In this document: piece after piece, positions 23,556 to 53,333 of the stretch
Position numbering within the stretch: the stretch's first letter is position 1
Layout: every line of letters begins with the position of its first letter
Source of the DNA: Candidatus Limnocylindrales bacterium
GTDB lineage: Bacteria; Chloroflexota; Limnocylindria; Limnocylindrales; CSP1-4
Assembly: GCA_036393495.1 (NCBI GenBank)
Contig: DASWGY010000137.1
Location: forward strand, 1 to 57,430
Direction: 5' to 3'
Length of the DNA: 57,430 bases
Notes under the pieces: model-generated
What the model saw: only the letters and a program-made list of their open reading frames with translations
Databases searched by the model: none
Told to the model about the DNA's origin: nothing
Translations under genes and position numbers: made by a program

Positions 23556-25097
23556 ATGGACCCGGGCCTCGAGCCGATCGCGCGTCGCCGCAAGGAACGG
23601 CGCCCCGGCGGGGGCGTGCCGCAACTGCCCTGGCGGCGGCTCGTCAATCCCTTTCGGCCGGTCGAGATCCTGTCAGCCGAGCAGCTCGAAGCGATCCATC
23701 GGGCGTCGCTGCGGATCCTCACGGAGGTCGGCCTCCAGATCCTCGGCGATCGCGCGATCGACCTCCTGGCCGCCGCTGGCGCGACTGTCGATCGCGCAGA
23801 GCGGCGCGTCCGCCTCGAGCCCGGGTTCGTGGAGGAGCGGATCGGGACGGCGCCATCGACCTTCACGCTCCACGCTCGCAACCCGGCTCGCTCGATCGAG
23901 ATCGGAGGGCCGAATCTCGCCTTCACCTCGGTCGGCGGACCTGCCTTCGTCACCGACCTCGACCGCGGCCGGCGGCCCGGCAACGCCGCCGACCTCCGTG
24001 ACTACGTCCGCCTGATCGGCGCCCTCGACGTCATCCACCAGGAGGCCGGCGGGCCACTCGAGGCCACCGACCTGCCCGTGGAGACACGACACCTCGACCT
24101 CTACGAGCTCCTGGCGACGACCCTCGACAAGACCTGGCAATGCGTCGGCTTCGGCCGGACCCCGGTCGACGACGCGATCGAGGTTGCCTGCCTGGCCCGG
24201 GCCGTCGACCGCTCGACCCTCGTCGAACAGCCGAGCGTCATGACGATCATCAACTCGAACTCGCCGCTCCGCCTCGACGGGCCGATGTCGGACGGCCTCA
24301 TCGAGATGGCCGCCAATGGCCAGGCCGTCGTCGCGACGCCCTTCACGCTGGCGGGGGCGATGAGCCCGGCAACGATCGCCGGGGCTCTCGCCGAGCAGAA
24401 CGCCGAAGCCCTGTTCATGGTCGTCCTCACCCAGCTGGCCCGGCCCGGCGCGCCGGTCGTGTACGGCGGCTTCACCTCCAACGTCGACATGCGGACCGGC
24501 TCGCCGGCCTTCGGCACGCCTGAGTACGTGAAGGCGGCCTTCGCCACCGGCCAGCTCGCCCGACGCTACGGCCTGCCGTTCCGGTCGTCGAACGTGACCG
24601 GCTCGAACGCTGTCGACGCCCAGGCGGCCTACGAATCCGAGATGGCCGTGTGGGGTGCGGTCATGGGCGGGGTGAACCTGCTCTACCAGGGCGCCGGCTG
24701 GCTCGAGGGCGGGCTCACCGCTTCGTACGAGAAACTTATCCTCGACGCCGAGATCCTCCAGATGATCGGCGAGATCCTCCAACCGCTCGAGGTCAACGAC
24801 GCGGAGCTGGGGGTCGAGGCGATCGCGAGCGTCGGGCCGGGCGGGCACTTCTTCGGGACCCCCCACACCCTCGAGCGCTTCGAGCATGCCTTCTACCAGC
24901 CGATGCTCAGCGACTGGCGGAACTTCGAGACGTGGCAGGACTCCGGCGCCGAGACCGCAGCGGTGCGGGCGAACCGGATCTGGAAGCAGCTCCTGGCCGA
25001 GTTCGAGCCGCCGCCCCTGGCGATCGACCGCGCCGAAGCGATTGAGGATTTCGTGGCTCGCCGGAAGCGCGAGATCGGGGCGGTGCGCTCGCCGTGA
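23556..25097 (+). CDS. MttB-superfamily (trimethylamine methyltransferase-like) protein, non-pyrrolysine type
   Basis: Full-length similarity to the family (ILSAEQLEAIHRASLRILTEVG, NSNSPLRLD, ATPFTLAGAMSPAT, GGFTSNVDMRTGSPAFGTPE, GGHFFGTPHTLE). The ORF is uninterrupted with no in-frame TAG. TATCGT lies 8 nt before the ATG. Confidence 0.85.
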   Translation: MDPGLEPIARRRKERRPGGGVPQLPWRRLVNPFRPVEILSAEQLEAIHRASLRILTEVGLQILGDRAIDLLAAAGATVDRAERRVRLEPGFVEERIGTAPSTFTLHARNPARSIEIGGPNLAFTSVGGPAFVTDLDRGRRPGNAADLRDYVRLIGALDVIHQEAGGPLEATDLPVETRHLDLYELLATTLDKTWQCVGFGRTPVDDAIEVACLARAVDRSTLVEQPSVMTIINSNSPLRLDGPMSDGLIEMAANGQAVVATPFTLAGAMSPATIAGALAEQNAEALFMVVLTQLARPGAPVVYGGFTSNVDMRTGSPAFGTPEYVKAAFATGQLARRYGLPFRSSNVTGSNAVDAQAAYESEMAVWGAVMGGVNLLYQGAGWLEGGLTASYEKLILDAEILQMIGEILQPLEVNDAELGVEAIASVGPGGHFFGTPHTLERFEHAFYQPMLSDWRNFETWQDSGAETAAVRANRIWKQLLAEFEPPPLAIDRAEAIEDFVARRKREIGAVRSP

Positions 25098-25417
25098 TTC
25101 GCGGACCTTGTTGTCCACGCTCGGGCCAGAGCCGATCTGCTGGTTCTCTGGTGGCAACCGGTGTGGTCGCGGATCGGCCGTTGCGGCATGTCCCGACGAT
25201 CCCGCCCCGTCCCTGAACGGGGACGGGTCCGATCAGCTCGGCCGACTGGCCAGCTGGGACCCCATTTCCATGTCTCGTACCACACCGGTTCGTAGGTGAG
25301 GAGAGATGCGGTCGCAGGGCCTCCCTGAAGGCAGGGTATTCACGAATTAGATCCGGGCTCGCCGAGGGCCCATCGCCGGGTGTGTCGGGGCCCCCGCCGC
25401 TCTCCAAGCCTCCCTGA

Positions 25418-28102: not shown

Positions 28103-29194
28103 TCAGTGGTCGCCGACGGTCGCGCCCTCCGGCCAATCGACCCCGACCGACCGTCCGAGCTCTCGTATGGCCTCGACTTTCGCTAGCGGGATCGGGATTC
28201 CATCCAGGCGTCGTCGTTCGGCAGTCTCGGCGCTTCGCTCGCCGGGGACGAACACTCGCGCTACACCCGGCGCGGGTGGCGAGGCATGGACCTGGTCGAT
28301 CAGATGCCTCACCCGGCTCTCGAAGGTCTCGATCGGCATCGAGATCCGCGGGTCGATCGCGATCAGGAAGAGGCTGACGCCCTGGGGCGTACCGCTGTCC
28401 ATCGGCTGGCCGACGTTCGGTGCGAAGAGCTCGCCGCCCGCAATAACGCCGGTCAGGACCTCGAGCATCAGGGCCAGGCCGTAGCCGCGGTGACCGCCCG
28501 CCGGGACCAGGAGTCCCGTCAGCCACGCCGCGGGATCGCGCGTCGGCCGGCCGCCAGCGTCGAACAGGACGCCCTCCGGCAGGAGCTCACCGCGCTCTCG
28601 AAGGGTGTCCATCTCGCCCGTCGACATGAGGGTCGTCGCCGAGTCGAAGACGAGCGGTGCGTAGGGTCCGGCCGAGCAGGCAATGGCGTGGGCCTGGTTG
28701 CCGAGGACGCGCCGCGTGCCGCCCCACGGCGCGGTGAGCGCCGGCCCGTTGGTGACGGCGAGGCCGATCATCCGGGCCTCCGCGGCGAGCCACGCGTAGT
28801 GGCCCATGGCCGCGGCCGAGCTGACATTGCAGATCGAGACCACACCGATCCCCGACTCGCGAGCTAGACCGATCGCGTGGCGCATGCCTCGACTCGCGGC
28901 GACCTGGCCCCAGCCCGTGTCGCCATCGAAGGCGGCGACGGCCGCGCGACTCCCGAGCGGGACCAGTCGGGCCCTTGGATCGGTTCCGCCAGCGCGAATC
29001 CGGGCAACACACTGGGGAAGCTTCGTACCGACGCCATGTGCCTCCAGGCCGCGGAGATCGGCCCATGCCATGGCGTCCGCAGCGAGCGACGCATCCTCCG
29101 CCGTCATGCCGACGGCCTCGAGGATGGCTGCGGCAAAGGCCCGCAGCGGCACGGCCTGGACCAGGATGGTCGACGGCGCGGCGGAGGCCATCAT
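28103..29194 (-). CDS. Ldh_2-family (malate/L-lactate/ureidoglycolate/Pyr2C-reductase type) protein, paralog 1 (last gene of operon)
   Basis: LRGLEAHGVG, LGNQAHAIA, FDSATTLMS, GGHRGYGLALMLEVLTGV and HASPPAPGVARVFVPGER are collinear with E. coli AllD-type proteins. The ATG at 29194 overlaps the upstream stop (ATGA). Confidence 0.85.
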   Translation of the reverse strand: MMASAAPSTILVQAVPLRAFAAAILEAVGMTAEDASLAADAMAWADLRGLEAHGVGTKLPQCVARIRAGGTDPRARLVPLGSRAAVAAFDGDTGWGQVAASRGMRHAIGLARESGIGVVSICNVSSAAAMGHYAWLAAEARMIGLAVTNGPALTAPWGGTRRVLGNQAHAIACSAGPYAPLVFDSATTLMSTGEMDTLRERGELLPEGVLFDAGGRPTRDPAAWLTGLLVPAGGHRGYGLALMLEVLTGVIAGGELFAPNVGQPMDSGTPQGVSLFLIAIDPRISMPIETFESRVRHLIDQVHASPPAPGVARVFVPGERSAETAERRRLDGIPIPLAKVEAIRELGRSVGVDWPEGATVGDH

Positions 29195-30096
29195 CCGGGG
29201 CCCGTCGCCTCGCCGTCGACCTGCGGCGAGGAGCTGGCGGCCGAGGCCTTCCAGGATCGCCACAGGGCGAGACGCTCGTCTGCTCGGAGGAGGCCGCAGG
29301 TGCGGCAGTACGCCTGGCGCCCAGGTACGACGTAGTTGATGCAGCAGATCCGGCGGACCTGGAGCGGACGCGGAAAGTCCGGGTCGTCGACGGTCTCCCA
29401 GGTGAGCAGGTCGAGCATCGGGTTGGGGCCGGGATGACCGGGCAGCCGTGGGCCAAAGAGGATGGCATCTCGATCCTCCGCCTGGGCGGCCTGTCGCGCC
29501 TGGTCGGGATCGTCGACCCCGTTCTCGTACAGCATGTCGATCTGCTCGGCGGCGGTCGACCAGAGGAGCTTCATCGAGACATGGGCCGTGGCGAGGATGC
29601 GCTCGAATGCCGGCGCGAGGTTGTCCCTGACCAGGCTCGTGAGGGCCTGGTCGCGCAGGACCCAGGCCGAGCCCGTGTCCTGCCCACCGAGGGGCCACCG
29701 AGTCGGCCGGTCGCCGGAGACGGCGACGGCGTCCGAATCCATCGACAGGACGACGCCCATCGGCATCTCGGTCCGGATCACGAAGGCGAGGCGGTCGAGC
29801 TGAACGTCCACCGCGACCCCGTGGGCGAGGGGAATGAGCGCCGCCGCGGCCACGGACCCGCAGTAGCGCCGGGCAAATCGTGACGCCGCTGCCCGGACGT
29901 CCTCGTCCTGCGGCCGGGCCGTCCACTCCAGAATGGCGCGGTTGAAGAAGTCGGGCAGACGGGCAGCCGACAGGAGCTCCTGGGCCGGCACGACTTCGCG
30001 GCCGGCCGGCGGTGCAAGGAAGATCGGGTAGGCGGCGCCGAACGGGCCGAACCGCCCGACTGCCTCGTCGATTGCGAGCTGGAGGTCCGCGGTCAT
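29191..30096 (-). CDS. FhuF-like (2Fe-2S)-binding protein (ferric-siderophore-reductase fold)
   Basis: C-terminal RICCINYVVPGRQAYCRTCGL gives C-C-x11-C-x2-C, like the FhuF C-terminal cluster motif. ATGA overlaps occur at both ends (30093-30096 and 29191-29194). Confidence 0.55.
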   Translation of the reverse strand: MTADLQLAIDEAVGRFGPFGAAYPIFLAPPAGREVVPAQELLSAARLPDFFNRAILEWTARPQDEDVRAAASRFARRYCGSVAAAALIPLAHGVAVDVQLDRLAFVIRTEMPMGVVLSMDSDAVAVSGDRPTRWPLGGQDTGSAWVLRDQALTSLVRDNLAPAFERILATAHVSMKLLWSTAAEQIDMLYENGVDDPDQARQAAQAEDRDAILFGPRLPGHPGPNPMLDLLTWETVDDPDFPRPLQVRRICCINYVVPGRQAYCRTCGLLRADERLALWRSWKASAASSSPQVDGEATGPG

Positions 30097-31166
30097 CGGT
30101 CGGGAAAGGACACGCCGAGTTCGGCGCCAAGCTTGGCCATGGCCGTCGCCTGGGGTGCCGGAATGGGGATGCCACCACGCTCGAACTCGACCGCGATCGA
30201 GTCTTTCCGCTCGCCGGGGACGCGAACCCTGGTCACGCCGGGTGCCGGCGGCGAGGCATGAACCTCGTCGATGAGCCGGTCGACCCTGGCCCGGAACTCG
30301 TCCGGTGGGAGGAAGCTGGCGGGGTCGAGCGCGAGCAGGAAGAGGCTGAGGCCCATCGCCTGGTCGAGGTGGTCCATGCCCACGATCTGGGTCGTCGTGC
30401 GGCCGCCGGACAGGACGCCGGTCAAGACTTCCCACAGGATGGCCAGGCCACCGCCCCGATGCCCGCCCATCGGCAGCAGCAGCAGGGTGTCCAGCGCTTC
30501 GGCAGCGTCGGTTGTCTCTCGTCCGTCGCGACCCAGGGCGACGCCCGGTGGGATCGGCTCGCCCCGCTCGCGGGCGGCCCGCATCAGGCCCATCGAGTAG
30601 GCGCTCGTCGACGAATCGAAGATGAGTGGCGGATGGTGGCCGGCGGGGGCACCGATGGCGAAGGCCTGGTTGCCGAGGAGCCGCTGCGAGCTGCCCCAGG
30701 GCGGCATGAGCGGAACCGAGTTCGTGATCGCCAGGCCGACGAGGCCCTCGCGGACCGCGAGCGCCGGGTAGTAGCCCATCGCGGCAGTCACATCACTGTC
30801 GCGAACGACGACGACACCGATCCCGACGGCCCGGGCCTTGTCGATCGCGAGTCGCATTCCACGACCACCGGCGACCGGCCCCCACCCGCCGGCGGCATCG
30901 AGAGAAGCCGTGGCCGCGGTTTCTCTGACCGGGGTCCAGTCGGCGTGGAGGGCGAGGCCGCCCCCGCGGGACCGTGCGGCGATCTGGAGCAGGCGGTTGG
31001 AGCCCGTCCCAAATGCCCCCCGAAGGTCGGAGTAGACCATCGCGTCGGCAGCGATCGCGGCGTCGTCGGCGGGCATTCCGAGGGCCTCGAGGACTGCCTC
31101 CGCGAAGGCCCGCAGGTCCGCAGCCAGGATGCGCCCCGGCGATGGGCGCGTCGTGGCCGGGCTCAC
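30093..31166 (-). CDS. Ldh_2-family protein, paralog 2
   Basis: LRGAFGTGSNRL, LGNQAFAIGAP, GGHRGGGLAILWEVLTGV, HASPPAPGVTRVRVPGER. The GTG at 31166 overlaps the upstream stop (GTGA). Confidence 0.8.
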   Translation of the reverse strand: MSPATTRPSPGRILAADLRAFAEAVLEALGMPADDAAIAADAMVYSDLRGAFGTGSNRLLQIAARSRGGGLALHADWTPVRETAATASLDAAGGWGPVAGGRGMRLAIDKARAVGIGVVVVRDSDVTAAMGYYPALAVREGLVGLAITNSVPLMPPWGSSQRLLGNQAFAIGAPAGHHPPLIFDSSTSAYSMGLMRAARERGEPIPPGVALGRDGRETTDAAEALDTLLLLPMGGHRGGGLAILWEVLTGVLSGGRTTTQIVGMDHLDQAMGLSLFLLALDPASFLPPDEFRARVDRLIDEVHASPPAPGVTRVRVPGERKDSIAVEFERGGIPIPAPQATAMAKLGAELGVSFPDR

Positions 31167-32266
31167 CAGGCCACCCCCAGCTCGGCCCCGAGCGACCGAA
31201 GCCGGGCGCTGAGCTCGGGCACAACCGGGACGCCTGTCCGCTCGCGCTCCGCTGCTAACGCGGCGGCCCGTTCGCCGGGGACGAGAACGGCCTGTACGCC
31301 GGCCATCGGAGGCGAGGCGTGAATCTGATCCACGAGGGTGTCGACGCGGGCCAGGAACCGCTCCCGCGGCAGCCAGGCCGATGGATCGAGCGCGAGCATG
31401 AAGTGGCTGACCGATTGGGATCGCGCGAGGTCGGCGATCGGAGTGATTTCGGATCCGAACCGGGCACCCCCAGACAAGACGCCGGTCAGGACAGCCCACA
31501 TCAACGACAACCCGAAGCCGCGATGACCGCCGATCGGCAGCAGGATTCCCGCGAGCGCCGCCGCGGGATCGATCGTTGGCGTGCCGGAGGCGTCAAGGGC
31601 GAGGCCCGCTGTCAGCGGCTCGCCACGGGCGATCAGGGCCTCGATGCCCGTCCAGGAGATGGCCGTCGTGGCTGAGTCGAAGATCACCGTCGGGCACCGG
31701 GCCGCCGGCGCCGCGATCGCGAAGGCCTGGTTGCCGAGGACGCGGGTTGTTCCGCCGTGAGGTGCCTGGAGGGGCGTCGTGTCGTTGATCGCCAGGCCGA
31801 CGAGGCCTTCGTCGGCGGCGAGGCTCGCGTACCAGCCCATGGCCGAGCCTGACGTGGTGTCCCGGACGACGACGATCCCCGCCCCCGTCGCGCGGGCCTT
31901 GACGATCGCAAGCCGCATCGCCCGCGTGCCTGCCACTTGGCCCCAGGCGCCCGCGGCGTTCAGGACGGCCGCAGCCGGCGTTTCGGCGACGACCCGGATT
32001 GCCGGAGCGGCCGGCGTTCCGCCGGCCCGGATCCGACCGACGAGGAGTGGCAGCTTGGCGATACCCTGGGCCGTGATCCCGCGGAGGTCGGCCCAGGCAA
32101 AGGCCGCGCCGACAGTCACCGCGTCGTCCTCCGGCATTCCGAGACGCTCGAGGACGGCGGCCACGAACGCCCGCAGACGGGCGGCGTCGATCAGCTCGTT
32201 CGGCTCGCTCACCCGGCGTTTGTCGGTACCCGTCCCAGACCGGTGTGCCGGCAGATCCTCGATCAT
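31163..32266 (-). CDS. Ldh_2-family protein, paralog 3
   Basis: LRGITAQGIAKL, LGNQAFAIAAP, GGHRGFGLSLMWAVLTGV, HASPPMAGVQAVLVPGER. ATG at 32266; GTG at 32212 is an alternative start. Confidence 0.8.
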   Translation of the reverse strand: MIEDLPAHRSGTGTDKRRVSEPNELIDAARLRAFVAAVLERLGMPEDDAVTVGAAFAWADLRGITAQGIAKLPLLVGRIRAGGTPAAPAIRVVAETPAAAVLNAAGAWGQVAGTRAMRLAIVKARATGAGIVVVRDTTSGSAMGWYASLAADEGLVGLAINDTTPLQAPHGGTTRVLGNQAFAIAAPAARCPTVIFDSATTAISWTGIEALIARGEPLTAGLALDASGTPTIDPAAALAGILLPIGGHRGFGLSLMWAVLTGVLSGGARFGSEITPIADLARSQSVSHFMLALDPSAWLPRERFLARVDTLVDQIHASPPMAGVQAVLVPGERAAALAAERERTGVPVVPELSARLRSLGAELGVAW

Positions 32267-32297
32267 GCCCGGCGCCCCCGACCCGAGCCCCGCCCGC

Positions 32298-33332
32298 TCA
32301 CAGCGTCAGCCCGAGGTCGGCGCCGATAGCCGTGAGACGCTCGTGAAGGGCGGCCCGGATCGGGATCCCGTCGCGCGCACGCTCGCGGGCGAGCGCGAAG
32401 CCTCGCTCGCCGGGCACCGTCACGCGCTCGACGCCAGGAGCCGGCGGCGAGGCGTGGATCTCGTCGATAAGCCGGTCGACTCGAGCTAGGAACTCTCCGA
32501 GGGGCTGGGCGAACTCAGGGTCGATGGCCATCAGGAACATGCTCACGGCCTGTGGCCGGTCGAGCTCGTCCGGCCCGGAGACCGCCGGGCCGTACCGCTC
32601 GCCACCCGCGAGGACGCCGGTGAGGACCTCCCACATGACCGCCAGTCCCGAGCCCCGGTGCCCGCCCATGGACCGAAGGATGCCGCTGAGCGCAACGTCA
32701 GGGTCGATGGTCGGCTGCCCGTCGGCGTCGAGCGCAACGTCCGGGGGGAGGGGTTCGCCACGGTCGCGGTACTCGTGGATTCGGGCGAGCGTGATCGCGG
32801 TCGTCGCCATGTCGAGCAGCAGTGGGTCATGGCGGCGGGCGGGGCAGGCGATGGCGAAGGCCTGGTTGCCGATGACCTTGGTCGTCCCTCCCCAAGGTGC
32901 CTGGAGCGGGGGCGAGTTGTTGATCGCCAGGCCGACCATCTTCTGGTCGGCGGCGAGGAGGGCGAAGTAGCCGAGCGGCCCTGCCGAGGTCGTGTTCCGG
33001 ACTGCTGCGACTCCGACGCCCGCCGAACGAGCCTGCCCGATGGCGTGACGCATCGCCCGGGCTCCGGCAATCTGGCCCCAGGTGTCGGCGGCGTCCAGCA
33101 CCGCGGTGGCATCCCGTTCGAGGACCTTCGTTCGCGCGCTTGTCGGGCTCGTCACGCCGGCCCGCAGGCGGCCCAGGTACTGCGGGATCTTCGCAACGCC
33201 AAGGGCACTGATCCCGCGGAGGTCGGACCACACGAGGACGTCGGTCAGCGCGGCCGCGTCGGCCCGGCTCATATCGGCCCGCTGGAAGACGGCCTCGGTA
33301 AAGGCTCGAAGGCGTTCGACCGGGACGCGCAT
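32298..33332 (-). CDS. Ldh_2-family protein, paralog 4
   Basis: LRGISALGVAKI, IGNQAFAIACP, GGHRGSGLAVMWEVLTGV, HASPPAPGVERVTVPGER. ATG at 33332 gives a family-typical N-terminus. The in-frame GTG at 33461 would overlap the upstream stop (GTGA) and add a 43-aa low-complexity extension. Confidence 0.8.
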   Translation of the reverse strand: MRVPVERLRAFTEAVFQRADMSRADAAALTDVLVWSDLRGISALGVAKIPQYLGRLRAGVTSPTSARTKVLERDATAVLDAADTWGQIAGARAMRHAIGQARSAGVGVAAVRNTTSAGPLGYFALLAADQKMVGLAINNSPPLQAPWGGTTKVIGNQAFAIACPARRHDPLLLDMATTAITLARIHEYRDRGEPLPPDVALDADGQPTIDPDVALSGILRSMGGHRGSGLAVMWEVLTGVLAGGERYGPAVSGPDELDRPQAVSMFLMAIDPEFAQPLGEFLARVDRLIDEIHASPPAPGVERVTVPGERGFALARERARDGIPIRAALHERLTAIGADLGLTL

Positions 33333-33457
33333 GGCCGGCGCGGCCGGGGCGCTCGTGCCTTCTTGTGTTCCGGCGCGACCAGCTCGCTCCGCGCCGGGCG
33401 AGCCCGGATCGCTGGTCGGCGTCGTTCCGCCGGGCGGGGCCGCGCCGCGCGCTCGAG

Positions 33458-34192
33458 TCACGCGGGTGTCCCGAAGGCCGTCCCCACGACCGCCTCGTGG
33501 GTCGCGATGACGAGCGTCGTGAGATCGAACACCGGCCGGCCCAGCGCCCGGCGAATGGCTGGCGCGTAGGGCGGAAAGTTCGTGCACTCGAGGACGAAGG
33601 CCCCGACGTCGGGGCTGCGGTCGACCACCCGAGCAGCGAGCGATACGAGCTCCGCCTCCAGGACCTCCCCGTCGGCCTCGGCACGACCCTCGAGGTACGT
33701 CTGGGCGAAGGTCGACTCCGGGGCCATGCCGCCGACCACGATGCGGAGGTCGCTCGACCTGAACCCGACGCCCTCGAATTGGGCTTCGGTCAGGTGAGGC
33801 TCGCTCATGGTGAGGATCCCGACGCTCCGATCGGGCCCGATCATCCGCGCCACGAGCGGGACCTGAAGGAGGGATGAGGACAGTACCGGTACGCTCACGG
33901 CGGCGGCCAGCTGTGGCTGAAACTGCGCGAGGAAGCCACAGCTCGTTGTGATCATCGGCACGCCCTCCTGCTCGAGCTCCCGGGCCGCGTCAACGAACTG
34001 GTCCCGGAGGGCGGAATCCGGGCGCTTTACGACGTATCCCGACGTCGCCCCGGGGACCACCCGGAAGCGAACCGGGAAGGGCCACGTGGCGGCATTGCCG
34101 ACGTCGCCGACGGGCCGCGGGAAGATCGTGTCGAGCATCAGGACCCCGAGCTCGTAGCCGTAGACGGTCCGACCGCCGGCGAGCGTCTGCAT
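33458..34192 (-). CDS. Asp/Glu/hydantoin-racemase-fold protein (two-cysteine type), copy 1
   Basis: ITTSCGFLAQFQ and VLECTNFPPY are the two conserved Cys positions of two-base racemases and isomerases. The start lies 5 nt after the AcnX small-subunit stop. Confidence 0.7.
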   Translation of the reverse strand: MQTLAGGRTVYGYELGVLMLDTIFPRPVGDVGNAATWPFPVRFRVVPGATSGYVVKRPDSALRDQFVDAARELEQEGVPMITTSCGFLAQFQPQLAAAVSVPVLSSSLLQVPLVARMIGPDRSVGILTMSEPHLTEAQFEGVGFRSSDLRIVVGGMAPESTFAQTYLEGRAEADGEVLEAELVSLAARVVDRSPDVGAFVLECTNFPPYAPAIRRALGRPVFDLTTLVIATHEAVVGTAFGTPA

Positions 34193-34197
34193 TCCGA

Positions 34198-34620
34198 TCA
34201 GGCGCCGCGGTGGACGGTGACGAGCCCGGTCTGGCCGTCGACCGTCACCTCGTCCCCGGTGTGGATCTCGGTCACGATGTCTGCGTCGGGCTGACAAACG
34301 ATCGGAACGCCGCCGAGGATCGCGCCCTGGACCAGCGAGGAATCGGGAAGGGCGACCTGGACGATCGCCACCGGGTTCGTCCCATGGACCACGAGCTGGT
34401 ACAGGAATCGCCACGCGCCAGCCGATCCGACCGTGTGGGGCAGCACGAGCACCCGCCCACCGACACTCTCGCCCGCCAGGGGATGCGTCCGATTGACGAT
34501 CTCGCCGGTCTTGATGTCGATGTCGCCGAGGAACGAGATTCCCTCGCTCGAGACGAGCGCCGGGCCCCGCGCCGTACCACGGACGATGCCGCGCCCGCGG
34601 ATCGGCCGGCTCGCGATCAC
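34198..34620 (-). CDS. Aconitase X swivel-domain small subunit (DUF126)
   Basis: GRGIVRGTARGPALVSSEGISFLGDIDIKTGEIV...GESVGGRVLVLPHTVGSAGAWRFLYQLVVHGTNPVAIV is a typical DUF126 sequence. The GTG at 34620 overlaps the large-subunit stop (GTGA). Confidence 0.8.
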   Translation of the reverse strand: MIASRPIRGRGIVRGTARGPALVSSEGISFLGDIDIKTGEIVNRTHPLAGESVGGRVLVLPHTVGSAGAWRFLYQLVVHGTNPVAIVQVALPDSSLVQGAILGGVPIVCQPDADIVTEIHTGDEVTVDGQTGLVTVHRGA

Positions 34621-35897
34621 CGTCCCGCTCGGGCCGGCACGAAACGGGCGGTGACCGCCGATTCGACGGCGCCTGCGGCGCTCGACAGGAGAGCTGCACA
34701 GCCGATCATGTCGCGGACATACTTCGCCTGTTTCGGCGAATCCACGACCATCGCCCGAATCGGCGGCGGCACGAGCTCCACCGATGGATCCGGGGAGGTG
34801 GTGCGAGCGAAGTGGCACGACATCGGGCAGGTATCGGTGATGATCCGGGCGCCCGAATCGGTGATGACTCGGGCCGTTCCGTCCTGCTCGGCGACGCTCC
34901 GGACGGCACGGCTCGTGGTGACCCACATTTCGACCCCGGGATGGACTCTGCGGCCCTCCAGGAGGCCGGCGTAGAGGCGCATCTCCTCACCTGATGCGTG
35001 GGGACAGCCGAGGTGGACGAAATCGACGGCCTCGCCCTCGGCCGGACCGCCAAAGGCCGCGTAGACGGCATCGATCTCGGGATCGCCGACGAGCAGCTCC
35101 TCGGTCGCCCGGCGTCCACGGAACGCGGCCGCCTCGTCAGCATAGGGAGGCGTCACGCCGGGGACGATGAACATCGAGACCCCGCCGGTCGTCGCCAGGC
35201 CGGCGCCGAGCGCGTCGAGCTCGTCGAGGCTCGGGCGACGACCCTCCAGGCCCAGGAATACCGGAACACCGGTTCCGACGATCTTTCCGACGTGATAGCC
35301 AAGGCAGCCGTAGTCGGTGATCGTCTCGAGACGCGCCTCGACTCGGACCCGGTGCGTCCCGACTCGGTTCTCGTCGAGGTGATAGCCGAAGCGCGGATAG
35401 CGGCCGGCGATCGCGGCATAGACCGAGAAGAAGCCATCCCGGTTGGAGCGGGCACCGAGGACCGAGTTGCAGAAGACGGTGACCCCGGATTCGATCGAGG
35501 TCATGTGGGTGTTCCAGGTGGGCCAGTAGCCCGCCCAGTAGGGCGTGCAGGTCATGGCACTGACGCAACCCAGATCGCCATGGGCCTTGACCCCCCGGAG
35601 GTGAATCCGGGCGAGGGCCTCCGGCGCCCCCGTATCCCGCCAGTGATCGGTGTCGACGTTGGTGACGTTCGCCGTGGTCGGGACGGACACCTTCGCCCCC
35701 AGGGACACGAGATCCTCGAGGAGCTCAACGTCCTGGGCATACATCGCCATCCCGGGGTGGACATGCGCGTAACCGATCGCGACCATGTCCTCGGCCCCGA
35801 ACGCGTCCCCGAGCTGGACGAGACCGGACATCGCCCGCTGCAGGGCTTCGCCCCGGTCCCCGTCCAGCATCGCCCGTTCGTCGTCGGTCAGCCGCAT
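34617..35897 (-). CDS. Aconitase X catalytic large subunit (DUF521)
   Basis: MRLTDDERAMLDGDRGEALQRAMSGLVQLGDAFGAEDMVAIGYAHV is a typical DUF521 N-terminus, with conserved Cys-containing blocks (FCNSVLGARSN, HLGCPH, TDTCPM). Confidence 0.85.
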   Translation of the reverse strand: MRLTDDERAMLDGDRGEALQRAMSGLVQLGDAFGAEDMVAIGYAHVHPGMAMYAQDVELLEDLVSLGAKVSVPTTANVTNVDTDHWRDTGAPEALARIHLRGVKAHGDLGCVSAMTCTPYWAGYWPTWNTHMTSIESGVTVFCNSVLGARSNRDGFFSVYAAIAGRYPRFGYHLDENRVGTHRVRVEARLETITDYGCLGYHVGKIVGTGVPVFLGLEGRRPSLDELDALGAGLATTGGVSMFIVPGVTPPYADEAAAFRGRRATEELLVGDPEIDAVYAAFGGPAEGEAVDFVHLGCPHASGEEMRLYAGLLEGRRVHPGVEMWVTTSRAVRSVAEQDGTARVITDSGARIITDTCPMSCHFARTTSPDPSVELVPPPIRAMVVDSPKQAKYVRDMIGCAALLSSAAGAVESAVTARFVPARAGR

Positions 35898-35971
35898 CGA
35901 GACGCCTCCGGACCTCCAGGCATCGCGCCGGCCGGCCGTCGGTCCGGCGGACGCCGCGAAGAGTCACGTCG

Positions 35972-35991
35972 CGATATCGTACACCGTTATC
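35972..35991. promoter_or_regulatory. GATATC-core motif pair (GATATC, then GTTATC 13 bp later) between the AcnX operon and the divergent racemase-like gene
   Basis: CGATATCGTACACCGTTATC. Confidence 0.55.
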
Positions 35992-36044
35992 AAAGCCCCT
36001 CTGGCCGGCACCGCCTCGGGTCGAGCCAGGAGCTGGAGGACCAG

Positions 36045-36782
36045 ATGAGCCGACCGCTGCTCGGGGGCCGTACCACCTACGGGCAGGACCTCGGTATCCT
36101 CATGCTCGACACCCGATTCGAACGGCTCCGGGGCGATGTCGGGAACGCGTCCACGTGGCCGTTCCCGGTCCGTTACAAGGTCGTGACCGGCGCGACCTCG
36201 TCCCGGATCATGGGCCGCGAGCCCGACCCCGATCTCATCGCACCGTTCGTGGCCGCGGCCCGCGAGCTCGACGCGGACGGCGTCACGGCGATCACGACGA
36301 GCTGTGGCTTTCTGGCCGCCTTCCAGCCCGAGCTGGCCGCCGCGGTGACAGTACCGGTCGTGACGTCGGCCCTCCTCCAGGTGCCGCTCGCGGCCCGGAT
36401 GATCGGACCGGACCGGCGGGTGGGCATCCTCACTGAGCGCCCGAACCTCACGGAGGCCCATTTCCGGGCCCTCGGCTGGTCCTCGACGGAGGTTCCGGTC
36501 GTCATCCGAGCGTTGCCCGACGAGGCCGTCTTCCCCACCATCTTCATCGACGGATCCGGCCGTCGCGTCGAGCCGAACCTCCTCGAGGCCGAGCTCGTCA
36601 GCGCCGCAGCGGCCCTGATCGCCGACGCCCCTGACGTTGGGGCGATCGTCCTCGAATGCACGAACTTCGTGCCCTTCTCTGCGGCCATGCGACGAGCGAC
36701 CGGACGGGCCGTTTTCGATCTGTACACCCTCGTCGCCGGGGTCAGTGCCGCCAGCCGGGAGACGGCTGTACGAGGCGGCTGA
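36045..36782 (+). CDS. Asp/Glu/hydantoin-racemase-fold protein (two-cysteine type), copy 2
   Basis: Clear paralog of 33458-34192 (GDVGNASTWPFPVRYKVV, ITTSCGFLAAFQP, LLQVPLAARMIGPDRRVGILT, VLECTNFVPF). GGAGGA SD. It is divergent from the AcnX operon. Confidence 0.7.
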   Translation: MSRPLLGGRTTYGQDLGILMLDTRFERLRGDVGNASTWPFPVRYKVVTGATSSRIMGREPDPDLIAPFVAAARELDADGVTAITTSCGFLAAFQPELAAAVTVPVVTSALLQVPLAARMIGPDRRVGILTERPNLTEAHFRALGWSSTEVPVVIRALPDEAVFPTIFIDGSGRRVEPNLLEAELVSAAAALIADAPDVGAIVLECTNFVPFSAAMRRATGRAVFDLYTLVAGVSAASRETAVRGG

Positions 36783-36815: not shown

Positions 36816-38153
36816 TCAATCCGACCCCGGCGTCAGCAACAGGGTCAATCGCCCGAGGTCGTCGAGATCTTCGAGGGACTCGACCAGAGCGACAGCGTCT
36901 GCCAGCCGCTCAGGGTCGACGAAGTGGGAACCGTCGCGCGCCAGCCAGGTCTGGGGCTCCTCGGGCGGGAAGACGTGGTCTGAGCCCTCGGCCGCGATCG
37001 TCCGCCCATCGATCAGGTCGATCTCGAGGCGGGCATACCGGATGGGATGACCAGGCTCGAGCTCGATCCTTGTCCGGCGGAGGATCTCGCCGGAGCCGCC
37101 GTCCAAGCCCCAGATGAAGCGGTCATCCCGAAGGCCACCATCGTGGAGGATCGCCGACACCTGGAATGCGGCCGAGGATGCCATTTCGGACGGCGTCGCG
37201 AACGGCCCCAGACTGTGCCCGGCCCGGAAGTTCGCCCGCTCCTCGGGGAGACAGATCCTGATCTCGCGAACATCGGGCGGTCGCACGCCGTGCCGGGCGA
37301 CGAGATCGAGAGTCAGCTCGATCGGGACGATGTTCAGGGCGGTCCCGTCGTAGCGCTTGGTTGTCGCATTGCGAATCTCGGGCTCGCGGCCGAGCTCCGC
37401 GACGGCTCCGTCGATCGCCGCCGGCAGCACCCCGAAGAAGGACTCGTAGAACCCATTGCGGCCCTCGAGCACGTCGTCCGCCGCCCGCCCGCCTTCCTCG
37501 GCCAGGATCGCCCCGAGCATCCCGTTGCGGGCAACGAGGCTGTAGTAATGGGTGACCAGGTCGCCGATCGCGAGCCCCATCGCCGAATGCGCCGCGTACC
37601 CGATCGCGTGCGCGGCACGGGCGGAATCGAGGCCGAGCAGCCGGGCGCTGACGGCTGCCGCGCCGAATGGCCCGAACGGGATCGTGGGCCGTCGAGGAAC
37701 GGTCCCGTCCCAGGCCCAGATCGACCGCCCGAGCACGCCGATGACTTCGTAGCCGGCGACGATCGCGGCCAGGACGTCGCGGCCGTTTCGATGGCACGCC
37801 TCGCCGAAGGCCAGGGCCGGCGGGATCGTCACGAGGCCGGCGTGGACGCCGACGGGGAAGAGGACGTCGTCTCGGCCGTTGGCCCGCATCAGGGTGCAGT
37901 TCGCGAATGCTGCATCGAGCGGCTGGTGGCCGCCATCTCGACCGATGACCCTGCAGGGGCCAGCAGAGCCGAGGCGCTCGGCGACCCGGATCGCGGCCTC
38001 GCCGGCCGGCTGGCGCGCCCCGGTGAACGCGAGCCCGAGGTGATAGATGATGAGGTCCTTGGCCGTCCGGACCACGGAGGGCGAGAGATCCTCGTATCGA
38101 ACCGTCGACACGTAGGCGCCGACCCGCTCACTCAACGTCGATGATGCTGGCAT
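36816..38153 (-). CDS. MmgE/PrpD-family protein (2-methylcitrate-dehydratase-like fold)
   Basis: LSERVGAYVSTVRYEDLSPSVVRTAKDLIIYHLGLAF is a typical family N-terminus, followed by the AGYEVIGVLG block. ATG at 38153. Confidence 0.8.
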   Translation of the reverse strand: MPASSTLSERVGAYVSTVRYEDLSPSVVRTAKDLIIYHLGLAFTGARQPAGEAAIRVAERLGSAGPCRVIGRDGGHQPLDAAFANCTLMRANGRDDVLFPVGVHAGLVTIPPALAFGEACHRNGRDVLAAIVAGYEVIGVLGRSIWAWDGTVPRRPTIPFGPFGAAAVSARLLGLDSARAAHAIGYAAHSAMGLAIGDLVTHYYSLVARNGMLGAILAEEGGRAADDVLEGRNGFYESFFGVLPAAIDGAVAELGREPEIRNATTKRYDGTALNIVPIELTLDLVARHGVRPPDVREIRICLPEERANFRAGHSLGPFATPSEMASSAAFQVSAILHDGGLRDDRFIWGLDGGSGEILRRTRIELEPGHPIRYARLEIDLIDGRTIAAEGSDHVFPPEEPQTWLARDGSHFVDPERLADAVALVESLEDLDDLGRLTLLLTPGSD

Positions 38154-38296: not shown

Positions 38297-39502
38297 ATGA
38301 ACGACCCCCGCGCAGAGCGGCTCCGAAGGCTGCCGCCGTATCTCTACATGGAGATCCGACGAAAGACCCGCGAGGCCCAGGCGCGAGGAATCGACGTGAT
38401 CAGCCTGGGCGTCGGCGACCCGGATCGGCCGACGCCCGATCACATCATCAGCGCCCTCGTCGAGGCGGCCGGGAAACCAGAGAACCACCGCTACCCTACC
38501 GATGAGGAGAAGGGTATGCGGGCCTTCCGGGAGTCGGTCGCCGGGTGGTACGGGCGCCGGTTCGGCGTCGACCTCGATCCCGACGGCGAGGTCGTCGCCC
38601 TCATCGGCAGCAAGGAAGGCAACCACCACCTGGCGCTCGCCGTGCTCGACCCGGGTGATGTCGCGATCATCCCCGACCCGGGCTACCCGGCCTACCTCGC
38701 AAGCGCGATCTTCGCCGGCGCCGAGGTGGTCCGGGTCCCCCTGCGGCCCGAGAACGACTTCGTCCTGGACATCAACGACCTTGGCGACGAGCTCGGCCGC
38801 CGGGCCCGGTTGTTGTGGCTCAGCTACCCGAACAACCCAACGACCGCGGTCGTCGACGTGCCGTTCTTCGAGCGCGTTGTTGCCTGGGCCCGCCGCAACG
38901 ATGTCGTCGTCGTCAACGACAACCCGTACTCCGAGATCGCCTTCGACGGTGTCCGGATCCCGAGCATCCTCGAGGCGGACGGGGCCCGGGACGTGGCCAT
39001 CGAATTCAACAGCCTGTCGAAGCCGTACAACATGACCGGCTGGCGGATCGGGATGGCGGTGGGCAATCGCGAGCTGGTCGGGGCCATCGCCCAGGTCAAG
39101 GAGAATACCGACAGCGGCGTCTTCAACGCCGTCCAGTACGCCGGCATCGCCGCCCTCGATGGTCCCCAGGACGCGATCGCGGCGAATCTCGAGGTGTACC
39201 GCCGTCGGCGCGACCTCGTCGTGGACACGCTCCGATCCGTTGGCCTGGCGCTCGATCGGCCGAAAGCCACGTTCTACGTCTGGGCCCCGATCCCGCCGGG
39301 CCTTGGCAGCATCGAGTATGCCGGCCGGCTGCTCGATCTCACGGGTGTCGTGGTGACGCCGGGGATCGGCTATGGGCAAATGGGCGAGGGGTATGTGCGT
39401 CTCTCACTGTCCGTCCCGGACGCCCGCCTCGCCGAGGCGATGGACCGGCTGAGCTCCGCTCGTCACGAGCTGGCCGCGCTCCCGGCGACGGCAGCCGGGT
39501 AG
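38297..39502 (+). CDS. dapL: LL-diaminopimelate aminotransferase (DapL-type class I aminotransferase)
   Basis: LPPYLYMEI, ISLGVGDPDRPTP, LIGSKEGNHHL, YPNNPT, and NSLSKPYNMTGWRIGMAVGN (the PLP lysine block). AGGAGG SD. It is followed by dapF. Confidence 0.75.
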   Translation: MNDPRAERLRRLPPYLYMEIRRKTREAQARGIDVISLGVGDPDRPTPDHIISALVEAAGKPENHRYPTDEEKGMRAFRESVAGWYGRRFGVDLDPDGEVVALIGSKEGNHHLALAVLDPGDVAIIPDPGYPAYLASAIFAGAEVVRVPLRPENDFVLDINDLGDELGRRARLLWLSYPNNPTTAVVDVPFFERVVAWARRNDVVVVNDNPYSEIAFDGVRIPSILEADGARDVAIEFNSLSKPYNMTGWRIGMAVGNRELVGAIAQVKENTDSGVFNAVQYAGIAALDGPQDAIAANLEVYRRRRDLVVDTLRSVGLALDRPKATFYVWAPIPPGLGSIEYAGRLLDLTGVVVTPGIGYGQMGEGYVRLSLSVPDARLAEAMDRLSSARHELAALPATAAG

Positions 39503-39509
39503 CCGCAGC

Positions 39510-40328
39510 GTGGCCCACTTCATCAAGTCCCACGGGCTCGGCAACGACTACCTCGTCATCGATCCCCGGGACCTTCCAGTCGAGCTGACGCCGGAGGCGA
39601 CGCGCCGGATCTGCGATCGCAATCGGGGCGTCGGCTCCGATGGCATCCTCCTCGTCGCCCCCTCCACTGCCGCTGACTTCGGGGTCCGGATCCTCAATCC
39701 CGATGGCAGCGAGGCCGAGAAGAGCGGCAACGGCGTCCGGATCTTCGCCAAGTTCCTGCGCGACCATGGCTACTCCGATCGCGATCGGTTCGTGATCGAG
39801 ACTCCCGGCGGCCTCGTGGCGGTCGAGCTCCACCGCCGCGACGGGCGCGTCGCCGAAGTCCTGGCCGAGATGGGCCGCGCTCGGTTCGACGACCTTGACG
39901 CCATCGATGTCGACGGTGGGCGGCTTGACGTCACCTCGGTGTCGGTCGGCAACCCCCATTGCGTCGTCGTCGTGCCCGACCTCGGCGCCGTCGATGTCCG
40001 GGGGCTCGGACCCAAGATCGAATCCCACCCCGCCTTTCCAAACCGGACCAACGTCCAGTTCGTCCAGGTCGTCACAAGGAGCGAGGTCCGCGCCGAGATC
40101 TGGGAGCGGGGAGCCGGCTACACCCTCGCCTCCGGCTCCAGCGCCTGCGCCGTCGCGGCGGCGTGCCATCGCCTCGGGCTCGTCGACCGGGAGGTCGCCG
40201 TGACGATGCCCGGGGGGCAGCTCCAGATCGCGATCGGCGAGGACGGGATGCTGCGGATGCTGGGACCCGTGGAGGAGGTCTGTAGCGGTGACCTCAGCGA
40301 GGAGCTCCTGGCGTCGTTGCGGGGCTGA
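39510..40328 (+). CDS. dapF: Diaminopimelate epimerase
   Basis: SHGLGNDYLVID, GSDGILLV, GNPHCVVVV and ERGAGYTLASGSSACAV include both catalytic Cys blocks. GTG start. Confidence 0.9.
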   Translation: MAHFIKSHGLGNDYLVIDPRDLPVELTPEATRRICDRNRGVGSDGILLVAPSTAADFGVRILNPDGSEAEKSGNGVRIFAKFLRDHGYSDRDRFVIETPGGLVAVELHRRDGRVAEVLAEMGRARFDDLDAIDVDGGRLDVTSVSVGNPHCVVVVPDLGAVDVRGLGPKIESHPAFPNRTNVQFVQVVTRSEVRAEIWERGAGYTLASGSSACAVAAACHRLGLVDREVAVTMPGGQLQIAIGEDGMLRMLGPVEEVCSGDLSEELLASLRG

Positions 40329-52925: not shown

Positions 52926-53333
52926 TTGACCCCCACGCTGATCGTGATCCAGTGGCTCCACGTCTTCTGCGCGATCTGGTGGTTCGGGTCGCTGCTGTAC
53001 TCGCGGTTCGTCGTCTATCCCCGCCTTCGAGCGGTCGGCGGCGACCTCGAGGCCTCGGTCCGGTCGGCCTTGACGACGGGTCGAGCGCGGATGATCACGA
53101 TCACCGTCGCTACACTGACTGTCGGGCTGGGGGCGATCCGTGGGGCGGTCGGCGGTGCCCTCGACGACCCCGCGTCGGCCTACGGCCTCACGTACCTGGC
53201 TTCGTTCGCGATCGGGGTGGCCATGATCGTCTATCTCGTCGGTGGGTGGGACCAGCCGTTCCTGAACCGCCTGTACGTCCTGGCGTTCCCGGTCATCTTC
53301 AGCCTCATGATCCTGATGCGGTTCGGCCTCTAG
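52926..53333 (+). CDS. Hypothetical small integral membrane protein (4 helices)
   Basis: TTG start lies 7 nt after AGGAGGAGG. IQWLHVFCAIWWFGSLLY plus three more hydrophobic helices. No secure family. Confidence 0.5.
   Translation: MTPTLIVIQWLHVFCAIWWFGSLLYSRFVVYPRLRAVGGDLEASVRSALTTGRARMITITVATLTVGLGAIRGAVGGALDDPASAYGLTYLASFAIGVAMIVYLVGGWDQPFLNRLYVLAFPVIFSLMILMRFGL

Follow-up and report, generated by a model that had tools for sequence, protein, structure and literature searches.

What reaction would require an aconitase X (AcnX), a racemase, four tandem dehydrogenases of a single family and an iron-sulphur (Fe-S) protein to be encoded side by side? The question is raised by a stretch of 57,430 nucleotides (hereafter the window; contig DASWGY010000137.1 of assembly GCA_036393495.1) from Candidatus Limnocylindrales bacterium, a soil member of the Chloroflexota, class Limnocylindria, with a G+C content in the analysed stretch of approximately 70%. 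Eight open reading frames (ORFs) on the minus strand fill positions 28103 to 35897 of the window, where an earlier note made from the sequence alone had placed them, and Pfam profiles support every one of the family calls made in that note, namely AcnX, AcnX_swivel, Asp_Glu_race, four copies of Ldh_2, and FhuF. When compared with NCBIfam, only the racemase scored above a cut-off, that of PRK07475, with the other seven operon proteins falling below every equivalog cut-off. While the enzyme families themselves are known, the sub-branches of AcnX, Ldh_2 and FhuF-like proteins found here are unstudied, and together they probably belong to an undescribed organic-acid pathway. Our preferred answer, held tentatively and at a little under an even chance, is that the operon forms the core of an undescribed catabolic pathway for a small anionic beta-hydroxy acid, be it an amino-dicarboxylate or a hydroxy-polycarboxylate, and not for hydroxyproline. 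The searchable literature contained nothing relevant on this gene combination, on heteromers of Ldh_2 proteins, or on Fe-S or aconitase-type hydroxyaspartate dehydratases, and gave no description or characterised pathway for the gene set; this agrees with the earlier note, which knew of no description of either arrangement that it had envisaged, a heteromeric Ldh_2-fold assembly with a dedicated Fe-S partner or a multi-substrate pathway for cyclic imino or hydroxy acids.

Two-subunit AcnX enzymes have been divided into subclasses a to f, of which AcnX IIb is the archaeal mevalonate-5-phosphate dehydratase and Type-II c to f, which possess neither set of landmark residues, are uncharacterised; in Type-IIa, the residues Trp35, Thr72, Asp203 and Ile206 that contact cis-3-hydroxy-L-proline (C3LHyp) are completely conserved (PMC8184944). 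The operon encodes an AcnX large subunit of 426 amino acids (34617-35897, minus strand; Pfam PF04412, 374 bits) and a small, swivel subunit of 140 amino acids (34198-34620, minus strand; AcnX_swivel_put, PF01989, 73 bits), whose residues we mapped by HMMER alignment to the structures of AtAcnX (7CNP) and TkAcnX (7CNR). The swivel serine, Asn233, Cys273, Glu292-Ser293, Cys508, Lys530 and Tyr534 (AtAcnX numbering) are retained, the retained residues of the large subunit in its own numbering being Asn77, Cys117, Glu136-Ser137, Cys298, Cys357, Lys389 and Tyr393, and the catalytic and cluster residues are kept in the operon protein and in all 120 homologs compared. The residues that contact the ring and ring nitrogen of C3LHyp are replaced: Trp35 by Leu, Thr72 by Gly, Asp203 by His47 and Ile206 by Met50. 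Further changes affect Cys71 (Ala) and Asn294 (Gly), and an extra cysteine occupies the position of Ser449 of AtAcnX, as in the archaeal three-cysteine cluster site. On the archaeal side, the phosphate-binding Asn53 is replaced by an invariant Tyr53, and the Gly48-Ser50 loop reads H-P-G-M-A.

These substitutions are shared widely. His47, Met50, Tyr53 and Cys298 are present in 119 to 120 of the 120 database homologs of the large subunit, which span 59-100% identity, giving the large subunit the signature H-[IV]-H-x-G-M-A-x-Y; the small subunit carries the signature GSAGAWRF, and its swivel motif GSAGAWRFLYQL is identical in seven loci. Because the one signature runs through practically all homologs and the swivel motif is identical in those seven loci, this AcnX is, as far as can be judged from sequence, a coherent uncharacterised bacterial Type-II subclass with a specificity of its own. 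The closest solved structure for both subunits is TkAcnX 7CNR (205 and 61 bits), with 7CNP also matched. Against NF051439, the NCBIfam equivalog for C3LHyp dehydratase, the large subunit scored 264 bits and the small subunit 58 bits, relative to a cut-off of 700 that is set for a fused protein, AcnX here being two polypeptides. We rejected C3LHyp dehydratase as the activity of this enzyme on the landmark residues and the family cut-off, and mevalonate-5-phosphate dehydratase on the exchange of Asn53 for Tyr, the bacterial host, and neighbours that look catabolic and include no mevalonate-pathway genes. Since the acidic, amine-binding Asp203 has given way to His and an invariant arginine follows soon after the catalytic serine, the substrate would carry an added anionic group where hydroxyproline has its ring ammonium.

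Compared with Type-IIa C3LHyp dehydratase, the operon enzyme shares the AcnX fold split into large and small parts, the catalytic serine, the Glu-Ser pair, the Lys/Tyr residues and the cysteine ligands, but differs by Leu, Gly, His and Met at the four contact positions and by its archaeal-like third cysteine. The wider systems show the same mixture: both place a C2-acting reductase-type gene downstream and follow a logic of epimerase, dehydratase and reductase, whereas here the epimerase is of the Asp/Glu-racemase type rather than the proline-racemase type and the Ldh_2 partners are not DpkA-like and come as two to four tandem types. With the archaeal Type-IIb enzyme (TkAcnX), it has in common the two-subunit layout and a three-cysteine set compatible with a [3Fe-4S] or [4Fe-4S] cluster, but has Tyr for Asn53, a bacterial host, and GSAGAWRF in place of GSTVGSYV in the swivel subunit. 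If this assignment is correct, an unassigned AcnX Type-II subclass among c to f gains a set of conserved partner genes.

The first of these partners is a two-cysteine protein of the Asp/Glu/hydantoin-racemase superfamily, Race1 (33458-34192, minus strand; PF01177, 45.5 bits), which belongs to the uncharacterised PRK07475 subfamily (293 bits, relative to a cut-off of 231) and has only remote matches among solved structures. Each half of the protein has one catalytic cysteine, in the motifs TTSCGF and LECTNF, which do not vary among 11 sequences across loci. A paralog with 58% identity to Race1, Race2 (36045-36782, plus strand), is divergently transcribed from the operon, and the same divergent arrangement is found in loci L041 and L046 of the 47 (L001-L047) that we examined, while L042, L043 and L047 have a single divergently placed racemase homolog beside their AcnX genes. 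The racemase paralogs thus flank the AcnX genes, and the same pair is kept in L041, L046 and L001. This conserved pairing suggests that the two proteins form a heterodimer or act at two stereocentres.

The remaining enzymes are the four Ldh_2 proteins: copies A (32298-33332; 344 amino acids from an ATG at 33332; 340 bits), B (31163-32266; 312 bits), C (30093-31166; 327 bits) and D (28103-29194; 322 bits), all on the minus strand. Each is a full-length match to PF02615 (cut-off 38.8 bits), none reaches an NCBIfam equivalog cut-off, and pairwise identities among them are 47-53%. Among solved structures they come closest to the malate dehydrogenase of P. horikoshii (1V9N; 193 bits with copy D and 202 bits with copy A), the sulfolactate dehydrogenase of M. 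jannaschii (2X06) and a T. thermophilus protein (1VBI). DpkA (1WTJ/2CWH) scored 95 bits with copy D, the weakest of 13 solved matches, and 87.5 bits with copy A, among the three weakest. We rejected the copies as DpkA-type reductases of the ketimines delta1-pyrroline-2-carboxylate (Pyr2C) and Pip2C on this difference, that is, 87-95 bits as opposed to the 193-202 bits obtained with archaeal malate and sulfolactate dehydrogenases.

The structure of AllD defined a conserved cofactor site comprising His44, His116, Thr156, Pro158, Asp174, Lys224 and Gly306, in which His116, Thr156 and Pro158 contact the nicotinamide; His44 and His116 are described as invariant in the Ldh_2 family, the H116A variant of AllD is inactive, and the residue of DpkA equivalent to His44 is its proposed general acid (PMC3527362). 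We aligned the operon copies to 1V9N (by HMMER), 2X06 and AllD, and use AllD numbering throughout. His116 is replaced by Ser in copies A, B and D and by Val in copy C, the GTNP motif that contains Thr156 and Pro158 reads GNQA in all four, and Lys224 is Arg in all four. At the His44 position copies A, B and C have Leu, Gln and Thr, respectively, and only copy D keeps the histidine. Like other members of the family (AllD, ComC, 1V9N, DpkA), all four copies preserve the same order of domains, Asp174 and the PGE motif, and Gly306 is kept as well. The replacements (GNQA, Ser or Val for His116, Arg for Lys224) run through the 120 best database homologs, with GNQA found in the four copies and in 119 of 133 aligned sequences when operon and locus copies are included.

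A neighbour-joining tree of 18 Ldh_2 copies from this operon and eight other loci resolved four orthologous clades that correspond to types A, B, C and D. Type A has Leu at the His44 position, with orthologs in L041, L046 and L039; type B has Gln, with an ortholog in L047; type C, which groups the operon copy with L041_2, L046_2 and L001_1, has His except in the operon; and type D keeps His44 and carries a one-residue insertion. Orthologs of types A, C and D are 52-63% identical across distant loci, with intact ORFs. Exactly one D type, together with at least one type that lacks the histidine, is found in each AcnX locus with tandem Ldh_2 genes (the operon, L039/L040, L041, L046 and L047). The copies therefore appear to be a non-canonical subfamily made up of four ancient, orthologously conserved types, of which type D is the likely best candidate for a working reductase. 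Types A and B have neither histidine, yet they persist across genomes with part of the cofactor site intact, and would be either partner subunits or enzymes with another proton donor. That the types are orthologous, and that D is accompanied by a His-less type at every AcnX-linked tandem locus, lends circumstantial support to a heteromer of Ldh_2 paralogs. If so, a coherent Ldh_2 subfamily without the invariant histidines and GTNP, occurring in sets of two to four types, challenges the current description of the family and may reveal either pseudo-subunit pairing or a different chemistry.

The combination of this AcnX subclass with tandem GNQA-type Ldh_2 genes was identified in four other independent locus types. 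In L041, from a 4.39-Mb genome, and L046 (GCA_964516495.1), the order is AcnXL-AcnXS-Race1-Ldh2(A)-Ldh2(C)-Ldh2(D), accompanied by a PrpD-like gene and a divergent Race2, with an additional DapL-type aminotransferase gene upstream in L041. In L047, Opp, D-amino-acid-dehydrogenase-like flavoprotein (DAO), aldehyde dehydrogenase and racemase genes accompany Ldh2(D)-Ldh2(B)-AcnXL-AcnXS and a 2-hydroxyacid dehydrogenase gene, and in L039/L040 Ldh2(A) and Ldh2(D) accompany AcnXL-AcnXS. Two proteobacterial genomes, those of Stella vacuolata and a 9-Mb assembly, contain the AcnX pair with a divergent racemase, and there Asp_DH- and short-chain dehydrogenase/reductase (SDR)-type genes replace Ldh_2; the AcnX locus of the 9-Mb assembly also contains PrpD, a thiamine pyrophosphate (TPP) enzyme and RidA. 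The core of AcnX, racemase and two to three tandem Ldh_2 genes thus recurs, as the earlier note had proposed to check. The multiplicity of Ldh_2 genes is conserved rather than accidental to this locus. Of the unusual features of the operon, the several Ldh_2 types and the racemase are conserved, and the position of FhuF within the array is specific to this lineage.

The Stella vacuolata locus (L042; AP019702.1, 3407018-3428292) lies in a cultured alphaproteobacterium and encodes an AcnX pair with 63% identity to that of the operon and the same type of racemase; its neighbours are a fused TRAP transporter with a TAXI-type binding protein, an SDR gene and an Asp_DH-like gene. Should the AcnX subclass be as described above, this host, with its related AcnX, racemase and TRAP transporter, makes the function of the subclass directly testable. 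In a plasmid collection, AcnX found only distant relatives with less than 38% identity, Ldh2_D found no match, and the FhuF-like protein found a single Nostoc match with 24% identity, which added no annotated locus from a cultured organism.

The FhuF-like protein itself comprises 301 amino acids (29191-30096, minus strand) and scored 44 bits against the Pfam FhuF family (PF06276; cut-off 25.2) and 56.5 bits against TIGR03951, below the cut-off of 63.85. FhuF is the archetypal [2Fe-2S] ferric-siderophore reductase, in which consecutive cysteines bind different irons. The operon protein has the motif CC-x11-C-x2-C, with x10 in E. coli FhuF; the four cysteines are invariant in 21 of 21 members of the FhuF-like family, with a spacing of x11 that reaches x15 in one, and 13 arginines are invariant across the family. 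Its AlphaFold2 model (pLDDT 90.4) has E. coli FhuF (7QP5) as best Foldseek match, with a probability of 1.0 and TM scores of 0.60/0.73, followed by the palm domains of NRPS-independent siderophore (NIS) synthetases. It shares with E. coli FhuF the palm-like domain and a C-terminal consecutive-cysteine loop that binds [2Fe-2S], but differs in an identity of only about 20%, the x11 spacing, and neighbours that are metabolic enzymes rather than siderophore uptake genes. A FhuF-family protein among metabolic enzymes would, if the assignment holds, extend the family beyond the release of siderophore iron.

Members of the family are few. From 5.8 billion proteins, a word-seeded search recovered 31 clusters, and the 1.84 billion representatives searched exhaustively with a profile yielded 380 matches at E <= 1e-3, of which 49 reached E <= 1e-30. 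Metagenomes contributed 28 loci. In 185,579 species genomes the profile matched a single locus, which attests to its rarity, yet limits comparative power. Inside an Ldh_2 array, the gene is found solely in this species-level lineage. Elsewhere, FhuF-like genes occur in L024-L026 in the order Ldh2(D)-FhuF'-FhuF-g52-PrpD-aminotransferase, with overlapping stops and starts in L026; in L001 beside a C-type Ldh_2 gene and both racemase paralogs; and in L006 near PrpD-like, DapB-like and DapD-like genes. Other neighbours are amidases, Opp-type transporters and, above all, a GlpC/LutA-like CCG protein. The proposal in the earlier note that Ldh_2 has a dedicated Fe-S partner is thereby weakened: the position of the FhuF-like gene in the array is peculiar to this lineage and AcnX/Ldh_2 loci in other genomes do without it, even if FhuF-like genes adjoin D-type Ldh_2 genes elsewhere. 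Two partly overlapping gene sets, one of AcnX, racemase and Ldh_2 and the other of FhuF, Ldh_2, PrpD and CCG, are merged here.

The same genome encodes a second FhuF-like paralog (46% identical; L016, 7979-10864) approximately 7.5 kb past g56, beyond the right end of the window. A family-5 solute-binding protein gene and three MFS genes precede it, and genes for an aldo/keto reductase, an RpiR-type regulator, a luciferase-like monooxygenase and a helix-turn-helix (HTH)-CCG fusion follow.

What pathway might these proteins carry out? We infer a class of substrate and an order of reactions as follows. The PRK07475-type racemases Race1 and Race2 would determine the stereochemistry of a carbon that bears a carboxylate, or isomerise an enoate; the two-subunit Fe-S AcnX would then take out, or add, water across C2-C3; and the Ldh_2-fold enzymes would carry out C2 redox chemistry, interconverting 2-oxo and 2-hydroxy or imine and amine forms. 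Type D would be the likely catalytic reductase, with the His-less A and B types forming heterodimers with D or handling different intermediates. The FhuF-like protein would be an accessory recruited into the array in this lineage, where it probably frees Fe(III) from a substrate that chelates iron, or transfers electrons one at a time. A catabolic direction is suggested by the flanking genes, which encode Opp-type ABC permeases and ATPases, an amidase, a Xaa-Pro-dipeptidase-like amidohydrolase, a DAO, RidA and a PadR regulator.

A further constant companion is a gene for an MmgE/PrpD-family protein (36816-38135, minus strand; MmgE_PrpD_N, 158 bits), whose best solved relative is iminodisuccinate (IDS) epimerase (2HP0, 68 bits) and which co-occurs with the AcnX module or with FhuF-like genes in L041, L046, L043, L006 and L024-L026. 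The set resembles the methylcitrate-type gene sets (PrpD, or AcnD with PrpF, then aconitase) in bringing together a PrpD-family protein, a member of the aconitase superfamily and a cofactor-free two-residue isomerase or epimerase; it differs in that the PrpD-like protein is nearest, if weakly, to IDS epimerase, that the isomerase has the Asp/Glu-racemase fold and not that of PrpF, and that there are no citrate-synthase-like or lyase genes.

Two chemistries would fit. The first, by analogy with the conversion of hydroxyproline to Pyr2C, is the breakdown of an alpha-amino-beta-hydroxy acid via an imine; RidA, DAO and the amidases speak for it, as do the Asp_DH genes that accompany AcnX in proteobacteria. 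The second is a hydroxy-polycarboxylate route that may resemble the conversion of citrate to isocitrate; it is favoured by the constant PrpD partner with its kinship to IDS epimerase and by the affinity of Ldh_2 to 2-hydroxyacid dehydrogenases. The TPP enzymes, the aminotransferase and the His/Arg substitutions of the AcnX pocket point the same way. Either substrate would be a good iron chelator, for which a FhuF-type reductase with an arginine-rich surface would make sense as an accessory for iron release or electron transfer.

Several observations weigh against a catabolic pathway of this kind, or against parts of it. Both chemistries match the context about equally well, and no substrate is singled out by the sequence. 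Given that His116, Thr156 and Pro158 are absent, and that AllD H116A is inactive, the Ldh_2 subfamily may not consist of ordinary NAD(P)H oxidoreductases. D- and C-type copies occur singly beside FhuF-like genes (L001, L024-L026), so that heteromers would be neither obligatory nor universal. The AcnX/Ldh_2 loci outside this lineage (L039/L040, L041, L046 and L047) have no FhuF-like gene within 10 kb, and for this reason the protein may have a function apart from the AcnX step. Related high-GC soil genomes account for much of the synteny, part of which may be due to common descent, and the adjoining dapL-dapF genes mean that part of the neighbourhood could be biosynthetic. If none of our interpretations holds, the operon simply joins the many catabolic clusters of soil metagenome-assembled genomes that lack an assignment.

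The losses from the cofactor site could also be read more radically. Type D, or C, together with the His-less A and B types may form an obligate heteromer on which the FhuF-like protein docks, perhaps with CCG and HemJ-like membrane proteins, as a new Fe-S-coupled and possibly NAD-independent dehydrogenase or imine reductase of the Ldh_2 fold; with the new AcnX subclass, this oxidoreductase would degrade an iron-chelating hydroxy- or amino-polycarboxylate, such as siderophore- or opine-type fragments or beta-hydroxyaspartate-like units. The replacement of invariant residues near the nicotinamide across the whole subfamily speaks for it, as do the presence of D with a His-less type at all AcnX-linked tandem loci and the coupling of neighbouring genes, by 4-nt overlaps between C, FhuF and D in the operon and by overlapping stops and starts between D, FhuF' and FhuF in L026. 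Candidate redox partners lie close by. The g56 gene (56127-57287, minus strand) encodes a cysteine-rich CCG-domain protein (Pfam CCG, 38 bits; NCBIfam GlpC, 51 bits, below cut-off) of the GlpC/LutA-like type that is the commonest FhuF-like neighbour (L001, L005, L006, L013-L017, L027), and g52 (52926-53333, plus strand) encodes a small membrane protein with four predicted hydrophobic segments. Relatives of g52 follow FhuF-like genes elsewhere (L020-L026, L028, L029 and L036-L038 by tblastn); its family matches are sub-threshold, to UPF0093/HemJ-like proteins (E = 0.044) and, for the L026 ortholog (3383-3784), to Urate_ox_N (E = 0.008), and it may be a membrane redox partner. However, the Ldh_2 fold has no known flavin or one-electron cofactor from which electrons could pass to a [2Fe-2S] cluster, Asp174, the arginine for Lys224 and the PGE motif in the cofactor site still suggest NAD(P) binding, AcnX/Ldh_2 loci elsewhere make do without FhuF-like genes, and CCG homologs are sometimes fused to an HTH domain and look like regulators. 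We therefore regard a heteromer of this kind as unlikely. In some CCG homologs the HTH domain lies at the N-terminus, further CCG genes are located at 13820-15178 in L016 and 13436-14875 in L039, and the family may include redox-sensing regulators in addition to electron-transfer subunits.

Could the cluster instead build a molecule? Next to the PrpD-like gene are two plus-strand genes, one for a DapL-type LL-diaminopimelate aminotransferase (38297-39502; NF006756, 555 bits, cut-off 507) and the other for DapF (39510-40328; NCBIfam, 243 bits, cut-off 115), and the adjacency of aminotransferase and PrpD recurs in L041, L026 and L038. DapB-like and DapD-like genes near FhuF or PrpD genes were also observed in L006 and L041. 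On these gene assignments the neighbourhood may be connected with diaminopimelate- or tetrahydrodipicolinate-like compounds, and a biosynthetic role in making a non-proteinogenic amino or hydroxy acid, or a building block of a metallophore, would find further support in the FhuF fold being common to the palm domains of siderophore synthetases and in the MFS exporter-type genes near the second FhuF-like paralog. We consider such a role unlikely: no NIS, nonribosomal peptide synthetase or opine synthase genes are found in the 57 kb, uptake systems (Opp, TRAP), amidases, RidA and DAO suit catabolism better, and dapL-dapF may be plain housekeeping lysine genes.

An equally unlikely explanation of the four Ldh_2 genes is that they are partly redundant or decaying leftovers of duplication, with only D and perhaps one other copy functional. 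Neither of the two family-invariant histidines is present in copies A, B and C, and copy C has Thr where its three orthologs retain the equivalent of His44. Across strains, codon differences in copy C are about as often, or more often, non-synonymous as synonymous (2/3 in L007, 5/4 in L011 and 6/2 in L012), with ratios of 5/3 (L007) and 7/7 (L011) in copy D; this hints at relaxed constraint on Ldh2_C, although the comparison rests on 1-14 differences per gene, too few for a firm dN/dS. Against decay stand the orthologous clades of types A, C and D with their intact ORFs described above, codon statistics that are fully coding-like, and the absence of stop codons and frameshifts from every ORF in L007, L008, L011 and L012, which are independent assemblies of this species (98-100% identical). 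Obviously decaying copies, which the earlier note had listed among possible refutations, were not seen; copy C has lost a histidine that its orthologs keep.

The ordinary hydroxyproline module to which, according to the earlier note, AcnX and one Ldh_2 gene would amount is very unlikely, for while the AcnX large subunit has its best named NCBIfam match in the C3LHyp dehydratase equivalog, automatic JGI names label some homologs cis-L-3-hydroxyproline dehydratase, L047 has DAO and aldehyde dehydrogenase genes, and a Xaa-Pro-dipeptidase-like amidohydrolase gene lies near the operon, the 264 bits fall far short of 700, the four contact residues as well as Cys71 and Asn294, all conserved in Type-IIa (PMC8184944), are changed, DpkA is among the most distant of the solved Ldh_2 proteins, and the racemase is of the Asp/Glu type, with no proline-racemase-type epimerase or other Lhp genes present.

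The catabolic reading that we prefer treats the eight genes as a unit. They are tightly packed, with one correction to the junctions given in the earlier note. Four junctions are 4-nt overlaps (GTGA at 34617-34620, where the stop of the AcnX large-subunit gene overlaps the start of the small, GTGA at 31163-31166, and ATGA at 30093-30096 and 29191-29194, so that the FhuF-like gene has an ATGA overlap at each end), the AcnX small subunit and Race1 genes are separated by 5 nt (TCGGA), and Ldh2_A and Ldh2_B by 31 nt (32267-32297). These six are as the earlier note described when it stated that all eight genes abut or overlap. The seventh, between Race1 and Ldh2_A, had been given as a possible GTGA overlap, and GTGA is indeed present at 33458-33461. 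A GTG start at 33461, which would add a low-complexity N-terminal extension of 43 amino acids to Ldh2_A, is unlikely on codon statistics and public gene calls: the 129 nt after GTGA have a G+C content of 0.88 at second codon positions (GC2) and 0.74 at third positions (GC3), compared with 0.53 and 0.86 in the gene body, and public gene calls on the sister contigs L007 and L008 place the start at the ATG at 33332. Because the statistics of the 43-codon stretch are non-coding and gene callers choose that ATG, the junction is more likely a 125-nt, probably non-coding spacer (33333-33457) than an overlap. In the orthologous loci of L041 and L046, the racemase and Ldh2_A genes do overlap by 4 nt. 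No terminator-like site was found on the minus strand inside the operon by a terminator scan, and taken with the junctions the eight genes presumably form a single operon.

The divergent intergenic region between the operon and Race2 (35898-36044) contains short inverted repeats and is the presumed site of promoter and operator; promoter and terminator scans gave nothing above shuffle expectation, and no consensus promoter was found in this region. Scans of the whole window with Rfam and for transfer RNAs returned no match, and with no Rfam match there is no riboswitch clue to the ligand.

Three further observations concern the edges of this neighbourhood. The 3' ends of the DapF gene, on the plus strand, and of a gene for an 846-amino-acid molybdopterin oxidoreductase, on the minus strand, overlap convergently by 35 nt at 40294-40328. 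An MttB-superfamily methyltransferase gene at 23556-25097 is full-length (Pfam, 622 bits; below the NCBIfam trimethylamine equivalog cut-off) and has no internal stop codon, and is therefore a non-pyrrolysine member; no corrinoid protein gene was noticed beside it. Lastly, the sister contig L007 (ENA k141_3860442) matches the window at 99.7% identity from 45897 down to 24834, beyond which it diverges. In this region of L007 (20780-21281), a called gene for 480 amino acids, which has a precomputed FhuF Pfam hit, starts antisense to the MttB gene of the window; the corresponding antisense ORF in the window, in the region 24834-25157, has no Pfam hit. Either the sister strain has a third gene with a FhuF domain at this position, or the contig could be a chimera.

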